Source of the DNA: Patescibacteria group bacterium
GTDB lineage: Bacteria > Patescibacteriota > Patescibacteriia > UBA10025 > JAHIVO01
DNA: 64,000 nt
NCBI GenBank assembly: GCA_018816445.1
Contig: JAHIVO010000061.1
Location: forward strand, 305-64,304
Reading direction: 5' to 3'
Below are positions 5,284-17,290 of the stretch, piece after piece. Below the pieces are notes generated by a model. It was given only the letters and a program-made list of their open reading frames with translations. It ran no database searches and was not told where the DNA came from. Numbering within the stretch: position 1 is the stretch's first letter; each line of letters begins with the position of its first letter. The position numbers and the translations under genes were made by a program.

Positions 5284-6795
5284 GTGAGTACACAAGAATT
5301 TGATAAGCTGATTGAATTACTTCAGCCAGCAAATCAAAAGGGAAGTATTGCTGCCCGTTTGCATTTTGATGATCAGACAGGCAGTCCACCGGATGAGGAG
5401 GCCAAGAAACAATTAGCCCAGTTAATGGCTCTGGCTGAGCGCGAAGCGCACGAGCTGTTTACAGCCGATTCGATTAGCCAAGCACTCACTGGACGTACCG
5501 GCTTATCCTTAACCGAGCAGCGCATGGTTGACCGTTTACAACTTTCTCATGATATGGCCAAACGGATACCGCCGGAGTTCGTACAGAAGCAGAGAGAGCA
5601 TATTCAGGCCGCTAATCGGGTCTGGATCGAGGCGCGTCAAAAAAGCGACTTTACCCTGTTCCAAAATACTTTTACAAAATCGGTGGAACTGGCGCGGGAA
5701 GAAGCGATCATGCTGGGGGCTGATTCCGGCCGGCCGGAAACTTATTATCCGGCCTTACTGCCGATTTACGAGCCGGGCATGGATTTTGCGCGTCTAAGAG
5801 AAATCATTGAGGCAGTGCAGGGACCGACCGTTGACTTGCTAGGCCGGATCACCAGTTCCGGCAAGGAGTTCACTGATAAGCTGTGGCGCGGTTATTTCGA
5901 AATTGACCGGCAAAAGTCTTTGGGTCAGACTGCCGCTTGGCTAATGGGCTATGATTTTAAGCGGGGCATACTGAAAGTCACAGTCCATCCGTTCATGTCC
6001 ACTGTCGGTTTGAATGATTGTCGGATTACTACTCGCTATGACCCGACCTACCTGCCTCAAGCACTGGGCGGCGTGATGCATGAGGCTGGTCACGGACTGT
6101 ATGAGCAGAATGTGGCTGAAGCGATTCGCCGTTTCATCACCGTACCGCTGGTTCATTCGCACGGCATCCATGAATCAAGTTCTCTGTTGTGGGAATGCTT
6201 TGTCGGGCGCAGTAAGCCGTTCCTGCAGTTCTTCCACCCGATCCTGACGGCTCTTTTTGAGCAGTACCGGGATGTGTCAGTGGATGAGCTGTATCAGGCA
6301 ATTAACCGGGTTATGCCCAGTTTTATTCGTGTGGAAGCGGATGAACTGACTTACAACCTGCACATTATTCTCAGGTTCGGTATGGAGCCGGAAATTTTGG
6401 CCGGCAATATCAAACCAGAGGATGTGCCAGCAGAGTGGAACCGCCGGTTTAAAGAGCTCTTTGGCATCGCGGTTGACACTGATGCAAATGGTTGTTTGCA
6501 AGATATCCACTGGTCGCACGGGTACTTCGGGTATTTCCCGACGTATTTGCTCGGCAAGCTGGGCGCGGCTCAGCTCTTTGCCGCCTTTGTTAAGGCTGTA
6601 CCAAGTTGGCAGGAGCAGTTCCGAATGGGCAATTTCAGAGTTTTGCTTGATTGGCTGTGTAAGAACGTCTATCCCTATGGACATGTTTCGGCTATGGACG
6701 ATCTGATGGTTAAAGCCACAGGTGAGAAGCTGAATCCGAAATATTGGTTTGATCATCTGGAGGAGAAGTTTGGCCAATTGTATGGCTTGAATTAG
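5284..6795 (+). CDS. M32 carboxypeptidase (Taq-type thermostable carboxypeptidase family)
   Basis: HEAGHGLYEQ (HExxH), GYFGYFPTY and DxRxT-like motifs. GTG start preceded by AAGGAGG. Confidence 0.8.
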   Translation: MSTQEFDKLIELLQPANQKGSIAARLHFDDQTGSPPDEEAKKQLAQLMALAEREAHELFTADSISQALTGRTGLSLTEQRMVDRLQLSHDMAKRIPPEFVQKQREHIQAANRVWIEARQKSDFTLFQNTFTKSVELAREEAIMLGADSGRPETYYPALLPIYEPGMDFARLREIIEAVQGPTVDLLGRITSSGKEFTDKLWRGYFEIDRQKSLGQTAAWLMGYDFKRGILKVTVHPFMSTVGLNDCRITTRYDPTYLPQALGGVMHEAGHGLYEQNVAEAIRRFITVPLVHSHGIHESSSLLWECFVGRSKPFLQFFHPILTALFEQYRDVSVDELYQAINRVMPSFIRVEADELTYNLHIILRFGMEPEILAGNIKPEDVPAEWNRRFKELFGIAVDTDANGCLQDIHWSHGYFGYFPTYLLGKLGAAQLFAAFVKAVPSWQEQFRMGNFRVLLDWLCKNVYPYGHVSAMDDLMVKATGEKLNPKYWFDHLEEKFGQLYGLN

Positions 6796-7717: not shown

Positions 7718-8857
7718 ATGCTTAATAAGATATTAAAATTTATATTTATATTCTCGACACTGTTGTTTTTTGCATTGCCTGTTTCAGCTAAAGATAACGA
7801 TAGTGTTGAAATTAACTTTTTTTACAGCGATACCTGCCCTCATTGCGCCAAAGAAGAGGTTTTTTTAGATGGGCTGGAACAGGAATTAGGCGATACAATC
7901 TTAATTAGCCGATATGAGGTGTCTGATAAGGATAATTTGGAGATATTTGAGAAGTTTATTGAATCGTCAGGCCAGGAAGTTAGGGGCGTGCCGGCCACTT
8001 TCATCGGCGATAAGGAAGTAATTGTGGGGTTCAACTCCAGCACTGATACAGGCCAGCGCATCAGGAATGTAATTAATGAATGCTTAAGTGAGTGTCCGGC
8101 CGATAATTCATTATTAGTTGATTTGCCGTTGTTCGGTGAAACGGATTTATCAAAATATTCATTGTTCGGTTTAACCGCCGTTGTGGCAGCCATTGACGGA
8201 TTCAATCCCTGCGCTATGTGGGTGCTGATTATCCTGATTGGATTTTTATTGGGCATGGAAAACCGGCGGCGCATGTGGACACTGGGCCTGACGTTTATTG
8301 CGGCCTCGGCTTTGGTTTACTTTATATTTTTAGCCGCCTGGCTGAAGTTTTTTCAGTTTATCGGGGTAGTCAGGCCGGTGCAGATTATTATTGGCTTAGT
8401 GGCTATTAGCGTGGCTATATATTATTTCCGGCGGTTTTGGAAATCACGTCCGGGTGAGTGTGAAGTGACCAATGTGGATCAGCGCCGCAAGATTACAGTG
8501 CGCATGAAAGCGGTTATTCAAAAGCGTTCTTTATTACTTGCCCTAATAGGAATTATTGGATTAGCTTTTGTGGTCAATTTGATTGAACTAGCCTGTTCAG
8601 CCGGTCTGCCTGCTATTTTTGCGCAGGTGCTGGCCTTAAGCGACTTGCCGTCCTGGCAGTATTATTTCTATCTGTTATTATATGTGATTATTTTCATGCT
8701 TGATGACATGATTGTATTTGCCATAGCCATGATAACTATGAAAGCGGCTGGCACTACAGGTAAGTACAGCCGTTATGCCACTTTAATCGGAGCTATTGTA
8801 ATACTGTTTTTAGGACTTTTGTTAATGTTAAAGCCAGAGTGGATTATGTTTGGTTAG
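7718..8857 (+). CDS. Membrane thiol-disulfide oxidoreductase: N-terminal thioredoxin-fold (CPHC) fused to a CcdA/DsbD-like transmembrane domain
   Basis: Signal peptide, FYSDTCPHCAKEE, then a polytopic domain with Cys in TM segments (DGFNPCAMW, LACSAGLP). Confidence 0.45.
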   Translation: MLNKILKFIFIFSTLLFFALPVSAKDNDSVEINFFYSDTCPHCAKEEVFLDGLEQELGDTILISRYEVSDKDNLEIFEKFIESSGQEVRGVPATFIGDKEVIVGFNSSTDTGQRIRNVINECLSECPADNSLLVDLPLFGETDLSKYSLFGLTAVVAAIDGFNPCAMWVLIILIGFLLGMENRRRMWTLGLTFIAASALVYFIFLAAWLKFFQFIGVVRPVQIIIGLVAISVAIYYFRRFWKSRPGECEVTNVDQRRKITVRMKAVIQKRSLLLALIGIIGLAFVVNLIELACSAGLPAIFAQVLALSDLPSWQYYFYLLLYVIIFMLDDMIVFAIAMITMKAAGTTGKYSRYATLIGAIVILFLGLLLMLKPEWIMFG

Positions 8858-10672: not shown

Positions 10673-10879
10673 TCTAGGGTAGTTTCCGCCAAAGGCGGAT
10701 CCGCCTATGGCGGACAATTGGCCCCGCCACAATGTTCTGGGATAGTTTAATTGGTAAAACCCTGCACTGTTAATGCAGTGATCCTGGTCCGAGTCCAGGT
10801 CCCAGAGTTTTGTGGCGGGGTAAAATAGAACGCTCCGCTGTTAACGGAGAGGTTGGAGGTCCAAGTCCTCCCCCTAGAG
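10673..10879 (+). tRNA. Outer tRNA-Asn (GTT)-like gene interrupted in the D-arm by ~135 nt that contain the complete inner tRNA-Asn
   Basis: Acceptor TCTAGGG (10673-10679) pairs with CCCTAGA (10872-10878). Anticodon stem CTCCG/CGGAG with loop CTGTTAA, T-arm GGAGG-TCCAAGT-CCTCC. D-stem GTTT (10682-85)/GAAC (10828-31). Insert clamped by CCCCGCCACA (10722-31)/TGTGGCGGGG (10811-20). Confidence 0.35.
10736..10807 (+). tRNA. tRNA-Asn (GTT), inner gene of a nested pair
   Basis: Cloverleaf by hand: acceptor TCTGGGA/TCCCAGA, D-stem GTTT/AAAC, anticodon stem CTGCA/TGCAG with loop CTGTTAA, T-arm CCTGG-TCCGAGT-CCAGG. 72 nt, no encoded CCA. T-loop has C at position 55, which is unusual. Confidence 0.65.
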
Positions 10880-11134
10880 TTCAGCGGGTAGATAAGTTAA
10901 CGGTAGTTTAGGTTCGCCCAATCATCCGATTGGGCGCCCCGTCGTATGACGGGGCAAGCCCTCCCCCTAGAGTTCGTCAGGTAGTTAAATTGTATAATAT
11001 TTTGGTTCGCCGTGAACCACTAAAGGGTTCACGGCGCCATGTACCCTTGAGTGGTACATGGCGATCCCAGCCCCCAGAGTTTAGCAGGCTTGTCCCGTAG
11101 GAGCGTCAGCGACTTACGGGATTCGAATCCTGCT

Positions 11135-11446
11135 CCCCGAGCCAATTGCCGAAAGTGACAACTTCTGTGGATAAGTCATAAAAGCCTTTAAATATCGGGT
11201 GAAAGTTGTACCCACTAGTTTTCTGTTTCGCAACTAAAATCTCCCCACCCAAGTAGGATTCGAATTTCTCATTCTTTTTAGCCTAAAATTCTTCCTTGTC
11301 CATCAGCAGTTTGAAGAGGTTTATAAGGTTTTCAGCCATGAGCCAGGCTTCGTCATCCGATATTTCTTCCCCATATTGCTTTTTGTAGATTTCCTTGAAT
11401 TTATCTATGTGATGTTGTTCAAGAGGCATTGATATCACCCCCTCAC
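11135..11446. repeat. Direct repeat copy 1 (~312 bp, ~90% identical to 15443-15756), encodes a 48-aa ORF
   Basis: Hand alignment of the two copies. They bracket the DGR-containing modules. Confidence 0.8.
11283..11429 (-). CDS. Conserved 48-aa protein (MPLEQHHIDKFKEIYKKQYGEEISDDEAWLMAENLINLFKLLMDKEEF)
   Basis: Strong RBS GAGGGGGTGATATCA before the ATG. The two copies differ at 12 nt but only 1 aa, which indicates purifying selection. Below the 60-aa track cutoff. Confidence 0.6.
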   Translation of the reverse strand: MPLEQHHIDKFKEIYKKQYGEEISDDEAWLMAENLINLFKLLMDKEEF

Positions 11447-12370: not shown

Positions 12371-12451
12371 TATAAATAACCAAAAATACATCTCATTAAA
12401 TTGGGGGATGTCCTTTCTTCGTTGTACAACTTATTTTTAATTAAGTTGTTA

Positions 12452-12494
12452 CTTCCCGCAAATAGGTTCTAACGTCCTCTACGACCCCGAGCCA
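12452..12494. repeat. Module-boundary motif copy M1 (CTTCCCGCAAA-GGTTCTAACGTCCTCTACGACCCCGAGCCA)
   Basis: Same ~45-nt motif also at 15410-15451, 17093-17138 and 28241-28310. A variant is at 11101-11146. Confidence 0.6.
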
Positions 12495-12610
12495 TCATTT
12501 CACTCCCATAAACATTGACCTTTCTGACATAGGCAAGTAGGACACTCGAACCTTCACTAGAAAAGCCAGTAAATACAGGGATATAAATTATCATCTGTGG
12601 ATCACTGATC

Positions 12611-12639
12611 TTGACAGATTGCCGTATCCATGGTAGCAT
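12611..12639 (+). promoter_or_regulatory. Sigma-70-like promoter TTGACA-N17-TAGCAT upstream of the DGR target gene
   Basis: Perfect -35 and a 4/6 -10 with 17-nt spacing, about 190 nt upstream of the target start codon. Confidence 0.4.
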
Positions 12640-12830
12640 CCATTGTTACTTTCCGCACTTTGTAATCCAAGAGCTAAAATCACGTTACCTCTTCATTTAA
12701 GAGCGGCTCCTTGCTGTAATCTCCGGACAGAGATTTCCAGAGAGCTGTTCTTAAATAACCGAAAGGTATCGCCTGGAAACCACAGTGGTTGACAGGCAGA
12801 TGTTTTTCAAAAACCAAGGAGGATGACGCC

Positions 12831-13448
12831 ATGGCAAAGACCATGACCCCATCTATGACTGATGGCCAGATTGACAAGGTTGTCGAAAACATCACAGCAG
12901 GGTTTCGCAAGAGACTTCGCGATCACAGGGATGAACTATCTTCAGACACAGTTCAAACCGTCCTCGGCCAGAAGGATTTTATTTCTGCCCTGTTCGCCGA
13001 GTTTCGCCAGCGCGTGGAAGCGGTCAGCAACATGATCGTTCGTAAGGTCAAGGTGGATCGCACCAGAACCTCGCAAGAGGCGCTGGACGTGACAGGACGT
13101 AAGCAGTATACCGACGACGATGTTGTGAAGTCCATGCCGAACGGCAAGGGCGATGAAACCGAGGTTATTTTCTTCAAGGTAGGTCGTACAATAAGTGACG
13201 ACGATCTGGAGAAAGAATATGAACTGCGCGGCCTGGTACCGGCTGATCCGTATTCACTCTGTGCCGTAAATGGAAATGATCCGGCGTTTGCCGATGAACA
13301 TCCCAATGGCACCCACTGGAAAGATTCCAACGGAAAATGGTGTTTCGCCTCCTTCGGCCGGTGGATCGACGAGCGCGGGGTGAGCGTCGACCGCGACGGT
13401 CGTGACTGGGCTGACTGCTGTTGGTTTGCCGGTGTCCGCAAGAATTAG
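12831..13448 (+). CDS. DGR target (variable) protein; C-terminal ligand-binding-type domain carries the VR
   Basis: AGGAGG RBS 8 nt before ATG 12831. C-terminus ...FGRWIDERGVSVDRDGRDWADCCWFAGVRKN is encoded by the VR. Confidence 0.75.
   Translation: MAKTMTPSMTDGQIDKVVENITAGFRKRLRDHRDELSSDTVQTVLGQKDFISALFAEFRQRVEAVSNMIVRKVKVDRTRTSQEALDVTGRKQYTDDDVVKSMPNGKGDETEVIFFKVGRTISDDDLEKEYELRGLVPADPYSLCAVNGNDPAFADEHPNGTHWKDSNGKWCFASFGRWIDERGVSVDRDGRDWADCCWFAGVRKN
13340..13441 (+). repeat. DGR variable repeat (VR)
   Basis: 102-nt homolog of TR 13778-13879. The 20 differences are all at TR adenines; every other position is identical. Confidence 0.85.
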
Positions 13449-13498
13449 GCACTTGGTCGCTTGAACGCATGGCACTTGATTGGTGCCCTTGGATACTA

Positions 13499-13528
13499 CA
13501 CTCTGCATGAGCTTGCTCATGCAGAGTG
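13499..13528 (+). terminator. Perfect 13-bp hairpin (CACTCTGCATGAG-CTTG-CTCATGCAGAGTG) + T-run, 58 nt downstream of VR
   Basis: Read directly. Candidate target-gene terminator and/or the DGR VR-flanking hairpin used in homing. Confidence 0.55.
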
Positions 13529-13777
13529 ATTTTTATCTGACAACGTGATATAATTTTATTTGGAGAGTAAGCGATTCAGCTTGCGGGCACGCCTGCAGGC
13601 GGCTGAAATCCGGATCATTGGGAAAGCCGGAATGCCTGTGGTTATGGCGACAGGCAGCGCGCTCCTTGATTCAATACCAACAAAGATACTTGGTGCAATA
13701 TGCTGGCGGAGCTTTTCTCCCGAATAAAATACAGCCCGGAGAGAATTCAACGGGCAGTGGTACGGAAGGCATGTTGC

Positions 13778-13879
13778 ATAATTCGCCAACTTCAACCGGT
13801 GGAACGACGAGCGCAAGGTGAACGTCAACCGCAACGATAATGACTGGAATGACAACTGTTGGTTTGCCGGTGTCCGCAA
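13778..13879 (+). repeat. DGR template repeat (TR), noncoding, rich in AAC/AAT codons in the VR frame
   Basis: In the VR frame TR reads FNRWNDERKVNVNRNDNDWNDNCWFAGVRN. 20 of its 30 adenines are substituted in VR. Confidence 0.85.
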
Positions 13880-13901
13880 CTATCTTTTTTGGAGCAATCC
13901 G

Positions 13902-14309
13902 CTATTTTGGCGGATTGTTTTTCATCAGTTGTTTTCGCCACCCGCCCAGCATTTTTCCAACCTCTACCAATGGAGGCGTGAGTTGGCTATATTTTCTGGT
14001 ATCCAGAACTTTCATTTCCCAGGCGATCTGCAGGAAAAATTTTAGGGCATCAAGCTTGGTTGAAGCACGCTCCACTACAGAGAGCTTCTTTTCCCTGGGT
14101 GAGTATCCGGCCAGAAGAATTAGTTCCAGAGCATCATAAAACAGCAGGTCAATCTTAGACCCGAGCGTAAAGCGGGACAGCCGCGGCAGGTTCGTCAAAT
14201 TCGCGTGCCATAACCTATACCCTGCCGCCAGTTTCTGTATAATGGGAATATCGACCGACAAATCCCTGGGGGGGGTAATCTTATTAATATGAAAACGCTT
14301 TTGACTCAT
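13902..14309 (-). CDS. avd: Avd-like accessory variability determinant (four-helix-bundle protein)
   Basis: LLAGYSPREKK (compare NIAEGYGR), FFLQIAWEMKVL and LVEVGKMLGGWRKQL resemble Avd / 23S-rRNA-IVS proteins. On the strand opposite to TR and RT, overlapping the RT start by 21 nt. Confidence 0.6.
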   Translation of the reverse strand: MSQKRFHINKITPPRDLSVDIPIIQKLAAGYRLWHANLTNLPRLSRFTLGSKIDLLFYDALELILLAGYSPREKKLSVVERASTKLDALKFFLQIAWEMKVLDTRKYSQLTPPLVEVGKMLGGWRKQLMKNNPPK

Positions 14310-15284
14310 GGGTTTAAGGATATTGTATCGATAGACAATCTATTGTCAGCCTGGCGTGAGTTTGTCCCGGGCAAAGCCGGGAAAAAGGATGTCAGGGAAT
14401 TTTACCGCCATCTGGCTGATAATATTATATCACTCCACGAGGAGCTTGAAAACGACACTTACCGACATGGCGGGTATATTCACTTCAGGATCTCCGATCC
14501 CAAGCCTAGGGATATTCACAAGGCAACCATCCGGGACAGGCTGGTGCACCATGCCATCTATCGCGTACTCTACCCCTTTTTAAGTGATACATTCATCGCC
14601 GATTCATATTCCTGCCAGTTGGGAAAGGGAACGCATCGGGCTATCAGAAGATTCCGGACTTTCGCCGGTCAGGTAAGCAGAAACAATACCCAAACCTGCT
14701 GGATATTAAAATGCGATATCAGGAAATTCTTTGCCAGCATTGACCATGCTATATTGATGAATATGCTAAGTGAGTATATTACTGACCAAAGAATTAATAC
14801 TTTATTGCGCGAGGTTATCCAGAGTTTCTGCTGGCAACCGGGCAAAGGTTTGCCGCTTGGCAATCTGACATCCCAGTTGTTCGTTAATGTGTATATGAAT
14901 GAGTTTGACCAATTCATGAAACATACATTAAAAGTCAAGTATTATCTGCGTTATGCTGATGATTTTGTTGTAATGTCTGATAACAGATCGTGGTTAAAAG
15001 GACTCATACCGATTATCAGTAATTTTCTGACGGTCAAACTCAAACTCACGCTTCATCCGAGCAAGGTATTTATTAAAACACTGGCTTCAGGAGTTGATTT
15101 TCTGGGCTGGGTGCATTTTCCGTATCATCAGGTACTCCGCACTTCCTCCAAAAGGCGCATGTTAAACAGGATTACTGAAAACCCGGAAACATCTACTATG
15201 CAGTCATATTTGGGTCTACTACAACATGGCAATGCATACAAGCTGGCAGAGCAGGTGATTAATCAGACCTATCTATGGAAGTAA
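14289..15284 (+). CDS. DGR reverse transcriptase
   Basis: RT motifs 1-7, YADDFVV (YxDD). The DGR-specific LGNLTSQLFVNVY ([I/L]GxxxSQ) replaces the retroviral QGxxxSP. N-terminal NLLSAWREF...VHHAIYRVL is typical of DGR RTs. Confidence 0.85.
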   Translation: MKTLLTHGFKDIVSIDNLLSAWREFVPGKAGKKDVREFYRHLADNIISLHEELENDTYRHGGYIHFRISDPKPRDIHKATIRDRLVHHAIYRVLYPFLSDTFIADSYSCQLGKGTHRAIRRFRTFAGQVSRNNTQTCWILKCDIRKFFASIDHAILMNMLSEYITDQRINTLLREVIQSFCWQPGKGLPLGNLTSQLFVNVYMNEFDQFMKHTLKVKYYLRYADDFVVMSDNRSWLKGLIPIISNFLTVKLKLTLHPSKVFIKTLASGVDFLGWVHFPYHQVLRTSSKRRMLNRITENPETSTMQSYLGLLQHGNAYKLAEQVINQTYLWK

Positions 15285-15409
15285 CCTTATCCACATTTAT
15301 TGTTGGAATACGCAATTGCAAACAAAGTGATTGAAGTATACAGTAAGATTGGGGCACGAGAATATTTCTTAATTTATTTAAAACAGTTTTCAGGAGAATT
15401 AAGTTGTCG

Positions 15410-15451
15410 CTTCTCGCAAAAAAGTTCTAACGTCCTCTACGACCCCGAGCC
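15410..15451. repeat. Module-boundary motif copy M2
   Basis: CTTCTCGCAAAAAGTTCTAACGTCCTCTACGACCCCGAGCCA, immediately followed by direct-repeat copy 2. Confidence 0.6.
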
Positions 15452-15756
15452 AATTGCCTAGAACGACAACTTACTGTGGATAAGTCATATTAACCTTTAA
15501 ATATCGGGTGAAAGTTGTACCCAAGAGTTTTCTATTTACGCAATTAAAATCTCCCCACCCAGGTAGGATTCGAATTTCTCTATCTTTTTAGTCTAAAATT
15601 CTTCCTTATCCATCAGCAGTTTGAAAAGATTTATCAAGTTATTGGCCATGAGCCAGGCTTCGTCGTCCGATATTTCTTCTCCATATTGTTTTTTGTAGAT
15701 TTCCTTAAATTTATCTATGTGATGTTGTTCAAGAGGCATTGGTTATCACCCCCTTT
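15443..15756. repeat. Direct repeat copy 2 (~312 bp)
   Basis: Aligned to 11135-11446 by hand. Confidence 0.8.
15593..15739 (-). CDS. Conserved 48-aa protein, copy 2 (differs at one residue, E33N)
   Basis: Same RBS and frame as copy 1. 10 of the 12 nucleotide differences are synonymous. Confidence 0.6.
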   Translation of the reverse strand: MPLEQHHIDKFKEIYKKQYGEEISDDEAWLMANNLINLFKLLMDKEEF

Positions 15757-15823: not shown

Positions 15824-16153
15824 TTAAATATTTTTAAGCTCTTCAAAATTAACCTCTGGAATTTCAGTGTTTAGTTTTCGTTTGCTGTTCTTTTGTTTTT
15901 CAACAATTGCAAACATCTGATTTACTTCAGGAGATATGTTTTGATAGCTCACTTTTTTAAAGTTCCAGAATTTGTTATGCTGGTCTTTAAGTTGTAGTAA
16001 TTCATGCGCGGCCGAGCGAGAAATAAAAGAGATATTTGAGAAATCCAAAACTACACGACGGTCTGTAGTTTCCTGAATCCGCTGTTTTATAATGCTAATT
16101 ACATCCCTCGATGAGAGCATTGGGGATATATCTTTTAATGCAATATTATTCAT
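15824..16153 (-). CDS. STAS-like / DUF4325-type anti-sigma-factor-antagonist-like protein
   Basis: RVVLDFSNISFISRSAAHELL has a STAS/DUF4325-like signature. Lies downstream of the GHKL gene in the same operon. Confidence 0.45.
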   Translation of the reverse strand: MNNIALKDISPMLSSRDVISIIKQRIQETTDRRVVLDFSNISFISRSAAHELLQLKDQHNKFWNFKKVSYQNISPEVNQMFAIVEKQKNSKRKLNTEIPEVNFEELKNI

Positions 16154-16194
16154 ATATAATCATTATATCACAGTTATATTGTGGATATCCAATT

Positions 16195-17076
16195 TTACTC
16201 TGTATAGGGTGTTATGTCAATAGGACCTTTGGGATAAGGTATTTGATAGGAGATAATAACTCCTTGCCAGTAGAAATTTGGGAGCTGTACAATTACTTGT
16301 TTACCTTGTGAACCTAAAAAGACGCTATTACCAGTGAGAAGTAAAAATTGGCCACCTAGTGCTTTCCTAACTACCAACTGTGATGTACTTAATCCGTAAC
16401 CTCTTCCTTCCATTTTTTTGGTTGACTGTCCTTGAAATGCACGTCGAATTGCTTCATCGTCACCAACTTCTTGTTTCTGAACATCAAAGTATCTTCCAGC
16501 AATGCCCCTGCCGGTGTCAATTATACAAATATCTAATAACTTCTTCTTCGGATAATGTTGTGCAAATATCCAACCATAATTCTTTTGGCTATGTTCGAAT
16601 ATGTTGCCGACTAATTCGCTAATAGGGTACAAGATTGCATTGCTTGCACCCGCTACATTACCTGTTAGTTTTTCGATAATTCTATAAAAATTACTTTCCA
16701 GACCTTGTCTACTTGTTTCGTCTGCTTTCTTAAGAAAACCAATTGGAATTGTATAGCTTAATAAGCTCAATTGATTGGCATTCTCTATTCCATTAGGAAA
16801 AGAAATATCTCTTAAATATCTCTTTACTTGTTCTGATTGAGGTTGTTGATAATTGCTCTGATATTCTCTAACGTGGGCACACACAGTAAGTGTTAATAAA
16901 GGGTGCATCCAAGTACAGGACGATAATCGAAAATTAACTGGATTTTGTTTTATCCCTTTAAAAGTATCATATAGAGCTTTGATTTGATCTTTAAGGTCGT
17001 CAGATTTAGGATTGTTGACCCTTACTTCCTTTAGCATTAATATTTTATTATAGATTATTTGTATATAGTATACCAT
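16195..17076 (-). CDS. GHKL-family ATPase (histidine-kinase-like ATP-binding domain) with ~140-aa N-terminal extension
   Basis: N-box ELVGNIFEHS, G1 box IDTGRGI, G2 box GRGYGLS. Confidence 0.55.
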   Translation of the reverse strand: MVYYIQIIYNKILMLKEVRVNNPKSDDLKDQIKALYDTFKGIKQNPVNFRLSSCTWMHPLLTLTVCAHVREYQSNYQQPQSEQVKRYLRDISFPNGIENANQLSLLSYTIPIGFLKKADETSRQGLESNFYRIIEKLTGNVAGASNAILYPISELVGNIFEHSQKNYGWIFAQHYPKKKLLDICIIDTGRGIAGRYFDVQKQEVGDDEAIRRAFQGQSTKKMEGRGYGLSTSQLVVRKALGGQFLLLTGNSVFLGSQGKQVIVQLPNFYWQGVIISYQIPYPKGPIDITPYTE

Positions 17077-17092
17077 CTAGTAATTAATCTTT

Positions 17093-17138
17093 TAAGTTGT
17101 CTCTTCCCGCAAAAAAGTTCTAACGTCCTCTACCACCC
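17093..17138. repeat. Module-boundary motif copy M3 with an inserted GC hairpin CACCCAGAGCTGGGTG
   Basis: CTTCCCGCAAAAAAGTTCTAACGTCCTCTAC + hairpin. The 3' CCCCGAGCC part is missing. Confidence 0.55.
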
Positions 17139-17290
17139 AGAGCTGGGTGCTTATGCGCAGTGAAAGACGAAATATTGTTTCGTCTTCTTTGGATTGATTT
17201 TAATCCCTTTATGAGGGATAATATAGGCGGGATTACTTGGTTATTATTGAAAATCATGCTGAAGCGAAAAATTAAAATAATCAATAATTT

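Follow-up and report, generated by a model that had tools for sequence, protein, structure and literature searches.

The locus described here lies in DNA of a Patescibacteria group bacterium, of which a stretch of 64 kb was analysed as a whole (hereafter the window). Unless otherwise stated, features are on the forward (+) strand. A target (variable-protein) gene of 205 aa (12831–13448) carries the variable region (VR) at its C-terminus and is followed by the intergenic template region (TR), by avd (accessory variability determinant) on the reverse strand, and by the gene of a reverse transcriptase (RT) of the diversity-generating retroelement (DGR) type. This layout, target-TR-(avd)-RT, is the B3 architecture of Wu et al. 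2018 (PMC5758913), in which the target lies upstream of TR-(avd reverse)-RT and which made up 90% of their CPR set. Since the B3 layout is typical of a Patescibacteria-restricted clade, the locus joins an already described kind of DGR. The DGRs of CPR bacteria were placed in a separate, cellular, aquatic clade (“DGR clade 2”) by Roux et al. 2021 (PMC8144416), and their targets were without recognisable domains. Host phylum, gene order, the reversed avd, a chromosomal rather than viral setting, the C-terminal VR, and a small target without recognisable domain or transmembrane segment are all common to these DGRs and the present locus, and the architecture does not differ in any respect. The VR class is possibly one of the “UVR” classes of Wu et al. 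2018.

Genes and repeat pair of the cassette

The VR (13340–13441; conservative core 13344–13441) comprises the final 34 codons of the target gene (codons 171–204 of the 205-aa ORF), and the TR (13778–13879; conservative core 13782–13879) lies outside the genes. Ungapped alignment at an offset of 438 gave 102 positions with 20 mismatches, all of them on TR adenines (13 A>G, 4 A>T, 3 A>C; hypergeometric P = 3.6e-14), and 10 of the 30 TR adenines were unchanged in the VR. These are the figures that a preliminary description of this DNA had reported from a hand alignment; tabulated base by base, the 102-nt block held no non-A mismatch, the translations given there for TR and VR were correct, and its reading of the pair as TR and VR agrees with the adjoining RT, avd and target gene, i.e., the rest of a DGR. 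In the 98-nt core, 17 of 17 mismatches were on TR adenines (P = 1.8e-12), and a separate repeat search also recovered the pair as a 98-nt repeat of 83% identity. At the 5′ edge (13340–13343/13778–13781), three of four positions are mismatched, and the mismatch at 13777 involves a base other than A, hence the homology ends there. When the TR was written as an A-to-N degenerate pattern and searched against the 64-kb window, only two copies were found, the TR and the VR themselves. Read in the VR frame, the TR begins with a TAA stop and is therefore non-coding at this locus; its codons include 8 AAC and 2 AAT. Because 28 of the 30 adenines occupy the first or second position of a codon, the repertoire of the C-type-lectin-like binding surface could reach about 5e14 protein variants, and only one codon can turn into a stop.

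The 3′ ends of both repeats are formed by a GC-rich, invariant block of 24 nt (CTGTTGGTTTGCCGGTGTCCGCAA; VR 13418–13441, TR 13856–13879), a candidate for an IMH-like boundary. The preliminary description had noted that this block is identical in both repeats despite containing A. The identity stands, whereas the adenine argument is weak within a single locus, because the block has just two adenines, the terminal AA. Across 42 related loci (see below), the two terminal adenines were changed in 0/37 and 1/37 VRs and the adenines 25–26 nt further upstream in 29/37 and 33/37; the 3′ block without mutagenesis is thus real, although selection on the Lys codon could contribute to the invariance of the terminal AA. 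Of the proposed IMH-like boundary, a single locus is only a partial test, and what the 37 VRs show is the non-mutagenised block. For the comparison of IMH and IMH*, the block is identical in VR and TR while the flanks beyond it are divergent; no internal difference was seen within the 24 nt in the VR/TR alignment, and a direction determinant would have to be placed in the flanks.

Thirty nucleotides 3′ of the VR, a small hairpin (GGCACT-TGATT-GGTGCC, 13471–13487) is a suggestive candidate for a target-site hairpin. About half of the related loci have a hairpin with another stem sequence about 25–30 nt 3′ of the VR. The mean best stem of these post-VR hairpins was 5.6 bp in a per-locus scan and the best score after shuffling was 4.8, the two values being different measures. 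A conserved post-VR cruciform as in the Bordetella phage was not recovered from the related loci by MAFFT/RNAalifold. Further downstream, a hairpin resembling an intrinsic terminator (13-bp stem and T-run, 13499–13535) would end the target gene transcript, and an equivalent hairpin with a T-run after the VR was found in related loci.

The target protein consists of an N-terminal three-helix region followed by an alpha/beta region with a C-type-lectin-like end. The structure model of the target was confident, and the placement of the variable residues on a C-type-lectin fold, one of the folds (besides Ig) expected of DGR targets, is taken from this prediction. Searches against the PDB yielded nothing meaningful with the sequence and no significant match with the predicted structure (Foldseek). 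Neither a signal peptide nor a transmembrane segment was found by eye, and the target is cellular and apparently cytoplasmic. A phage origin was discarded as no relatives of the target were present among IMG/VR viral contigs. An in-frame TTG upstream of the gene, at 12789, is a possible alternative start.

The RT (331 aa, 14289–15284; RVT_1, 5e-23) had its best PDB match over residues 11–308 in 8ub7, a 328-aa chain deposited as “Reverse transcriptase” (E = 7.5e-43). We take 8ub7 to be the bRT of the Bordetella phage, because the complex of that phage is the subject of the cryo-EM preprint of Handa et al. and the chain agrees with bRT in length. Both proteins have the motifs I/LGxLTSQLFxNVY and YxDD, which read LGNLTSQLFVNVY and YADD in the window and include the I/LGxxxSQ and YxDD signatures of a DGR-type RT. 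The avd gene (13902–14309, − strand) encodes 135 aa from an ATG at 14309; in other assemblies, the gene call begins with a TTG at 14261 and gives 119 aa. Its product matched the PF22296 (bAvd) model (8e-12, 46 bits, cut-off 40) and stayed below the cut-off of NF033474 (DivGenRetAVD; 71 bits, cut-off 80); by PF22296, the accessory protein of this DGR is Avd, the place being taken by HRDC, MSL or CH1 in other classes.

Related loci and recent diversification

For comparison, 80 related loci were fetched, about 45 of which, from other species, have the same cassette with order and spacing unchanged. In 42 of these, the TR/VR pair was clean and about 100 nt long. Pooled over all detected repeat pairs, 736 of 761 mismatches were on TR adenines; the scoring used for this penalised non-A mismatches more heavily. 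Roughly 30 of the 80 loci hold a homologue of the target with neither RT nor avd nor TR within 5 kb. Leader fragments (the leader is described below) are all that some loci without the cassette retain, and we conclude that DGR cassettes decay in these relatives.

An independent assembly (L001) was 99.75% identical to the window over 5,194 nt and encodes an identical RT protein. Of its 13 differing sites, 12 were in the VR (13357–13416), all opposite TR adenines, and a third near-identical contig (L002) has yet another version of the VR, including a 2-nt insertion that possibly arose when reads of a mixed population were assembled. The VR is hence diversified between near-clonal genomes. Because the window and L001 may come from the same study, these VR differences represent population heterogeneity and not a measured rate, and the evidence for ongoing mutagenic retrohoming is indirect and at the level of populations (12 of 13 differences). 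Judged from these sequences, the element is recently active.

Direct repeats of 56 nt and roughly 300 nt bracket the cassette in the window, L001, and L002 only; 35 other cassettes were without flanking repeats and one had a different repeat. Since the bracketing repeats are confined to this lineage, mobility was dismissed as a general property of these cassettes. A search upstream for a tmRNA or another RNA gene as integration site (ARAGORN, Rfam) detected no tmRNA and only a tRNA-Asn together with one sub-threshold tRNA-like remnant at 10817–10875.

We consider the locus to be a complete, recently active DGR of a Patescibacteria (CPR) lineage (probability about 0.95), and weighed two other origins of the repeat pair. 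If the element were a fossil that no longer works, the adenine pattern would record past mutagenesis, as might be expected where cassettes decay and roughly 30 of 80 related loci have lost RT, avd, and TR around the target homologue. Against this, the RT, avd, and target ORFs of the window are all intact and the RT retains YADD, the differences to a 99.75% identical assembly are almost exclusively at TR-adenine positions of the VR, and L002 contributes a third VR version; such a loss of function is thus very unlikely. Ordinary duplication or gene conversion of a coding segment, with reverse transcription uninvolved, would explain the existence of a direct repeat and nothing more. It is scarcely credible here, given that all mismatches are on a single base and in only one of the copies, the TR is non-coding with a stop first in the VR frame, a DGR-type RT and Avd adjoin the pair, and about 45 loci of other species are built in the same way.

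Predicted structure of the TR RNA

In an alignment of 34 loci, an extended −10 element (TGaTATAAT, 13546–13554) was recognised upstream of the TR, with T1, A2, and T6 of the hexamer invariant; it is the putative promoter of a TR RNA. It is followed by a non-coding leader of about 220 nt (13563–13779), which was folded with RNAalifold across the 34 loci. The consensus consists of two hairpins with UNCG/YAMG-like loops (H1, 13563–13610; H2, 13621–13667), an invariant ACUUGGU (13688–13694), and a three-way domain (H3, 13693–13779), the 3′ strand of which abuts the 5′ edge of the TR. Out of 56 pairs, with 96% of cells paired, 44 showed double changes. Double-change cells numbered 348 compared with 98 ± 12 in shuffled alignments (0/500 reaching the observed value) and 45–77 in slid controls. 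Predicted pairs inside the TR, which served as negative control, had 0 compensatory changes, and a structure inside the TR was rejected on that basis. Likewise, conserved structure in the avd-antisense region was rejected, as the TR-to-RT interval that includes it yielded 0 consensus pairs when 28 loci were folded with RNAalifold.

Beyond the TR, a strand of 9 nt (UCUUUUUUG, 13883–13891) that starts 4 nt past its end is predicted to pair with the leader at 13678–13686 (CAACAAAGA). This clamp helix would loop out H3 and the TR between its two strands. Its 9 pairs were paired in 85% of cells (78% in shuffles, 39–61% in slid controls), and 7 of the 9 showed double changes (16 cells compared with 4.2 ± 1.8 in shuffles, 0/500), so that the clamp is predicted with moderate support from covariation. 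It is followed by a hairpin (CAATCCGC/GCGGATTG) and UUUUU (13895–13922), overlapping the final avd codons on the other strand; this hairpin and GAGTTTTGTTTT are conserved among related loci. The hairpin may be an intrinsic terminator of the TR RNA, an Avd-binding stem-loop, or both. An “Avd-binding stem-loop” was proposed for many DGRs (207) by Handa et al.

Among known RNAs, RT-10 (the DGR Sp element) and RT-7 (RF03028), both described by Weinberg et al. 2017, are structured RNAs beside bacterial RT genes, as is the leader. No Rfam family matched the leader at threshold, and the leaders of typical family members had no match even at E ≤ 10. Membership in a known family was discarded, since only RT-7 gave a partial match in the window (21.4 bits compared with a gathering score of 116.8 for the 191-position model) that was confined to one hairpin, and 18 other family members were without a match to RT-7. 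H2, which reads CGAGAAU-stem-GAUUACGGUU-stem-AGAGUG, is similar to the first hairpin of RT-7 (CCAGAGU-stem-GuCAaGgC-stem-AGaGUG). RT-10 was without a match, and an RNA of the Bordetella type, i.e., TR followed by a 3′ Sp, was not found.

The DGR of the Bordetella phage (BPP-1, mtd-avd-TR-brt) has in common with the present one the adenine-specific transfer from TR to VR, the Avd partner, an RT that is about 40% alike and has the same signature motifs, a CLec-type variable protein (here by predicted fold), and the GC-rich unmutated 3′ block. In the BPP-1 RNA, the TR is looped out between helices of the flanking RNA, and the same arrangement is predicted here. However, avd of BPP-1 is upstream and on the same strand, whereas it is reversed and 3′ of the TR in the window. 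The essential RNA scaffold of BPP-1 (Sp, 140 nt) is likewise 3′ of the TR, in contrast to a covarying RNA 5′ of the TR here, where only the clamp strand and one hairpin are found on the 3′ side. The BPP-1 target is a phage tail fibre, unlike the cellular, apparently cytoplasmic target of this DGR. A structured leader ahead of the TR appears to be previously undescribed.

Repeat tract at the avd/RT junction and interpretation

A poly-G tract (G8, 14268–14275) precedes the RT ATG by 13 nt and falls within the ATG-initiated avd frame, where it is a poly-C with the codons T-P-P-R. The window and L001 both have G8, whereas L002 has G9 and L003 has G10, and the resulting indels are the sole ones outside the VR between the window and L001–L003. 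Such a junction repeat was present in 40 of 41 related loci as G≥7, (CTGG)10, (TGAC)13, or (GT)9, whereas the remainder of these loci has 2 G/C≥7 runs per 100 kb. Simple-sequence-repeat contingency loci of Haemophilus, Neisseria, and Bordetella have homopolymeric or tetranucleotide tracts at the 5′ end or promoter of a gene, where relatives may differ in the unit that is repeated, with unit lengths indivisible by three and length polymorphism in near-identical genomes, and the junction repeat resembles them in all these respects. Here, avd and RT are both candidates for the gene that would be affected, through either translation or promoter spacing. As G8, G9, and G10 occur in near-identical assemblies, the tract suggests a phase-variable switch acting by slipped strands. 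We know of no simple-repeat tract attached to a DGR, and a junction repeat beside DGR enzyme genes appears to be previously undescribed.

For both the leader and the tract, another role has to be weighed. The leader might stand outside the RNA used for reverse transcription, for example as an sRNA of its own, a regulatory 5′ UTR, or the gene of a small protein; the scaffold would then be 3′ of the TR as in the Bordetella phage, in a read-through RNA antisense to avd. NCBI gene calling indeed places a 55-aa ORF at 13560–13727, and if the post-TR hairpin is the Avd-binding stem-loop of Handa et al., read-through would produce a Sp-like 3′ segment. A protein gene was rejected, however, since no ORF is conserved (the longest has 21 to 76 aa across loci, in no shared frame), and compensatory double changes affect most leader pairs. 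In addition, nhmmer detected the leader in every complete-cassette locus, ending no more than about 10 nt from the TR start, and as missing or fragmentary where RT and avd are absent, and the covarying clamp connects it to nucleotides immediately past the TR. We therefore regard a leader unrelated to the TR RNA as unlikely. For the tract the balance is different. With a slightly better than even chance, it is no switch and instead a G-rich ribosome-binding or spacer element, the lengths G8, G9, and G10 being homopolymer assembly errors: it is close enough to the RT start to act in a Shine-Dalgarno-like manner, homopolymer lengths are error-prone, and only 13 of 32 loci have an avd-frame start codon beyond the tract, which is near the one-third chance level. 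On the other side, (CTGG)10, (TGAC)13, and (GT)9 at the same place cannot be Shine-Dalgarno sequences and have repetitiveness as their only common trait; the unit lengths are 1, 2, and 4, none divisible by 3; the avd frame passes through the repeat from an upstream ATG at the tetranucleotide loci; and no other indels were seen outside the VR.

For a working DGR with the leader in its RNA, the following course of events is proposed. The extended −10 element would serve as a separate + strand promoter for an RNA of about 370 nt, which is expected to start about 7 nt past 13554. The structured leader of 220 nt would be followed in this RNA by the TR of 100 nt and by a short 3′ tail that includes a hairpin and ends near 13922. 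RT and Avd would copy the TR into cDNA with random bases opposite template adenines, and the cDNA would replace the VR at the 3′ end of the target gene, with the invariant GC-rich block as anchor. As a result, a C-type-lectin-like binding surface would be rewritten within the repertoire given above. By analogy with the Bordetella phage DGR model, we infer the ends of the RNA, the priming site, and the homing step; RT-Avd would presumably bind to the leader, and copying of the TR may be halted at its 5′ limit by the H3 helix, near 13779. A broader proposal, drawn from the sequence comparisons and regarded as possible but doubtful, is that this lineage has its own DGR on/off switch, by which slippage in the junction repeat would frameshift or de-tune Avd or RT and make hypermutation phase-variable, together with a reverse-transcription RNA that is inverted relative to Bordetella, its 220-nt scaffold 5′ of the TR forming a self-contained small-RNA unit.

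The TR/VR pair alone is one further example of a well-catalogued class and carries little weight by itself. The locus as a whole is a clean example, with demonstrable activity, from the DGR clade that is least understood, which is cellular and Patescibacteria-specific. The leader, the clamp, and H3 bear on RNP assembly and cDNA priming in DGRs with reversed avd, and they define an RNA construct (about 13556–13925) with specific helices to mutate. The junction repeat, kept in position and not in sequence, suggests that stochastic switching may be the control of this mutagenic device.

Template and variable repeats, cassette genes and recent activity

The preliminary description had proposed a template region (TR) and a variable region (VR) of a diversity-generating retroelement (DGR), and the underlying direct repeat with an offset of 438 nt was seen both by reading positions 13200-14100 and by an independent repeat search. 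Position-by-position tabulation of VR 13340-13441 against TR 13778-13879 bore out the claimed 102 aligned positions with 20 mismatches, all 20 of which have an adenine in TR (13 A>G, 4 A>T, 3 A>C; P = 3.6e-14 if randomly placed); none falls on another TR base within the aligned block. The count of 10 unchanged among 30 TR adenines and the translations of both repeats were likewise reproduced. The 5' limit of the repeat is less certain, as 13778-13781 has three differences in four positions and 13777 a mismatch not on adenine; the conservative repeat is therefore 98 nt long (13344-13441 / 13782-13879), and all 17 of its mismatches are on A (P = 1.8e-12). Of the 30 TR adenines, 28 occupy the first or second position of a codon, the codons include eight AAC and two AAT, and only one TR codon is able to mutate to a stop; the theoretical VR repertoire is ~5e14 proteins. 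Scanning the 64-kb window with TR as an A->N degenerate pattern gave no additional VR.

VR makes up the final 34 codons of the target gene (12831-13448, 205 aa), the exact product of which is recorded in NCBI as a hypothetical protein of Patescibacteria group bacterium. Downstream of TR, on the opposite strand, lies the accessory variability determinant avd (13902-14309, 135 aa), whose product matches Pfam bAvd above the cut-off and NCBIfam DivGenRetAVD at 71 bits (cut-off 80). The reverse transcriptase (RT) gene (14289-15284, 331 aa; RVT_1 5e-23) has 8ub7 as its nearest solved relative (E = 7.5e-43), with LGNLTSQLFVNVY and YADD common to both. The deposited name of 8ub7 is just “Reverse transcriptase”; it is taken to be Bordetella phage bRT because its length of 328 aa fits and the cryo-EM preprint of Handa et al. 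describes that complex. G+C content of the cassette is ~0.47-0.55, higher than in the flanks.

The identical RT protein is encoded on three other public contigs. The alignment of the window with one of these near-identical contigs (L001, GCA_018813575.1) is gap-free over 5,194 nt and contains 13 differing positions, 12 of which lie at 13357-13416, each opposite a TR adenine, and the 13th is a silent change in RT; a second such contig (L002) carries yet another VR version. Mutagenic retrohoming that continues in a near-clonal population would be expected to leave just such differences, which no ordinary process would produce. The DGR reading of the TR/VR pair is supported and, judged from these sequence comparisons, the element is active.

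An IMH-like 3' boundary, i.e., a non-mutated terminal block, had also been proposed from the identity of the last 24 nt. At one locus this argument is weak because these nucleotides have adenines only at the very end (CGCAA), but comparison with 42 relatives points to an A-poor, GC-rich, non-mutagenised 3' block as a real family property, as the two terminal adenines were changed in 0/37 and 1/37 VRs and the adenines 25-26 nt upstream of them in 29/37 and 33/37. Selection for the Lys codon could contribute to the unchanged terminal adenines. Past this block the flanks of VR and TR diverge, the TR flank itself being conserved (CTCTCTTCATTTCTC). A small hairpin (13471-13487) lies ~25-30 nt downstream of VR and has equivalents in about half of the related loci; its stem sequence varies by locus, and a conserved (C)TTTGRMCTT motif comes after the hairpin. 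On weak statistics, it may be the counterpart of the Bordetella target-site hairpin.

A structured leader RNA 5' of TR

Between the terminator hairpin of the target gene (13499-13535) and TR lies an extended -10 box, TGaTATAAT (13546-13554), with key bases invariant in 34 loci, followed by ~220 nt that are much more conserved than the neighbouring proteins (55-65% identical). This leader (13563-13779) has no conserved ORF that would make it a protein gene. In a structure-blind MAFFT alignment, RNAalifold predicted 78 pairs, and compensatory changes were seen in 49 of these. For the 56 leader pairs alone, 96.0% of cells were paired (80.0% in shuffled and 36-52% in slid controls) and 348 cells were changed on both sides (98 ± 12 shuffled, 0/500 reaching the observed value; 45-77 in slid controls), such double changes being carried by 44 of the 56 pairs. 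Inside TR, where 17 pairs were predicted, there was no compensatory change, which makes for a clean internal negative control.

The leader comprises two hairpins, H1 (13563-13610) and H2 (13621-13667), each with a UNCG/YAMG-type loop in a GAUUACGGUU-like motif, an invariant ACUUGGU (13688-13694), and H3 (13693-13779), a three-way domain closed by a 12-bp helix that stops exactly at the TR start. A long-range helix pairs 13678-13686 with 13883-13891, the 3' strand starting 4 nt past TR; it was 85% paired, with double changes in seven of nine pairs (16 cells vs 4.2 ± 1.8, 0/500), which is moderate but significant support. As this helix would join the leader to the 9 nt beyond TR, TR and H3 would be looped out between its strands. 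A hairpin with a U-run (13895-13922) follows downstream.

Using nhmmer, the leader was found in every complete-cassette locus, ending at the TR start or no more than ~10 nt from it; loci that lack RT and avd had no leader or only fragments of it. No Rfam 15 family was matched at threshold; H2 gave a 21-bit partial match to hairpin 1 of RT-7, whose gathering score is 116.8, with flanks and loop design alike. This may reflect distant kinship, but no hit was obtained with other members of the leader family. No description of such a leader was found in the DGR literature searched.

In Bordetella phage BPP-1, the essential scaffold Sp (Rfam RT-10) is 3' of TR and pairs both with the 3' end of TR, as a template:primer duplex, and with the RNA directly preceding TR, as a “cPRT stop” duplex, TR being looped out between the duplexes. 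The RNA of the window is alike in having helices around a looped-out TR and a stable helix at the TR 5' edge, but the bulk of its conserved RNA sits 5' of TR. The DGR survey of Handa et al., CPR included, was limited to the 40 nt before and the 100 nt after TR. By analogy, H3 would fix the 5' limit of copying and Avd would bind H1 and H2 and/or the post-TR hairpin; the leader-TR unit is probably transcribed separately from RT.

Distribution and surroundings of the cassette

With at least 593 members, the target family is almost confined to Patescibacteria. Species-representative genomes contained 109 genomic stretches with target relatives, the best 80 of which were kept as loci. In ~45 of these 80 the cassette recurs with almost constant spacing as target, ~330 nt, a ~100-nt TR, reversed avd, and RT. 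Across pooled detected repeat pairs, 736 of 761 TR/VR mismatches fell on TR adenines, a proportion somewhat inflated because the extension score penalised non-A mismatches more. A strong A>G skew is seen among these 736 (467 A>G, 147 A>T, 122 A>C) as well as in the window (13 of 20 substitutions), and may reflect misincorporation bias of RT or selection for Gly, Asp and Ser codons. The TR-(avd)-RT order is the “B3” architecture of 90% of the CPR set (Wu et al. 2018, PMC5758913), and a Patescibacteria-restricted DGR clade, cellular, aquatic and with targets without recognisable domains, has been described (Roux et al. 2021, PMC8144416). No target relatives were found on IMG/VR viral contigs. 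The DGR belongs to this known CPR/B3 class.

In about a third of the loci (~30/80), the target homologue has none of RT, avd and TR within 5 kb (L004, L007, L008, L010, L012 and ~25 further loci; L016, L033, L061, L073 and L074). These may be decayed cassettes, as suggested by leader fragments that alone persist in several of them, or orphaned or remotely served targets. In one related locus (L062) the leader occurs twice, at 5725-5944 and 8156-8376; one copy stands beside the target with a TR, and the other precedes avd/RT by ~160 nt. This points to insertion of a second target or to two template units in a single cassette.

Two copies of a 56-nt repeat (12439-12494 and 15397-15452) enclose the cassette (12495-15452), and a third, more diverged copy follows 1.7 kb further on (17118-17143). 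This repeat ends in CCCCGAGCCA, a motif that occurs three times, and two of these sites are followed by a ~300-nt repeat (11135-11431 vs 15443-15741, 91% identity) with a 51-aa minus-strand ORF inside. Both repeats resemble boundaries of the cassette or scars of attachment sites; near the cassette no integrase was apparent, and the repeats are lineage-specific, being absent around cassettes of other species. All bracketing repeats lie downstream of a tRNA-Asn and a run of tRNA-like remnants. At 10735-11144, the tRNA-Asn precedes ~330 nt of GC-rich, hairpin-rich sequence. CCC(C)(T)AGAGTT terminates four units in it, one of them scoring as a truncated tRNA-Asn-like element (28.9 bits); the last segment contains a T-loop-like motif, TTCGAATCC, and has CCCCGAGCCA at its end. 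No tmRNA was detected. The region may represent remnants of repeated integration at a tRNA or an unrecognised RNA gene. The minus strand directly downstream of the cassette (15824-17076) encodes an anti-sigma-factor-like pair, a small STAS-like protein and a GHKL/HATPase_c protein, between the second and third 56-nt-repeat copies.

A repeat tract where avd and RT meet

When the TR-RT intervals were aligned, a poly-G tract, G8 in the window (14268-14275), was seen where avd and RT stand head to head. The tract precedes the RT ATG by 13 nt and falls within the avd frame as read from the putative avd ATG. At the same position (common to L005-L081; e.g., 6434-6474 in L021 and 6496-6547 in L067), 40 of 41 related junctions carry a run of at least seven G (G7-G12, mode G10) or another repeat, namely (CTGG)10 twice, (TGAC)13 once and (GT)9 once, against a background of 2 G/C runs of at least 7 per 100 kb in the rest of the same loci. 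None of the unit lengths (1, 2, 4) is a multiple of three. Tract length differs between the near-identical contigs (G8 in the window and L001, G9 in L002, G10 in L003), with the caveat that homopolymer lengths in assemblies are error-prone; avd was called at 119 aa in the latter two because only G8 or G11 leaves the 135-aa frame open. A start codon beyond the tract was present in 13 of 32 loci, no more than expected by chance. The conserved position and variable length of the repeat suggest a slipped-strand contingency tract that would place the DGR, through Avd or RT expression, under phase-variable control; no paper on both DGRs and phase variation was found in the literature search.

The covarying 5' leader RNA and the junction repeat lift this locus above a routine DGR call. 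Both are properties of the whole lineage, and both are directly testable features of it.
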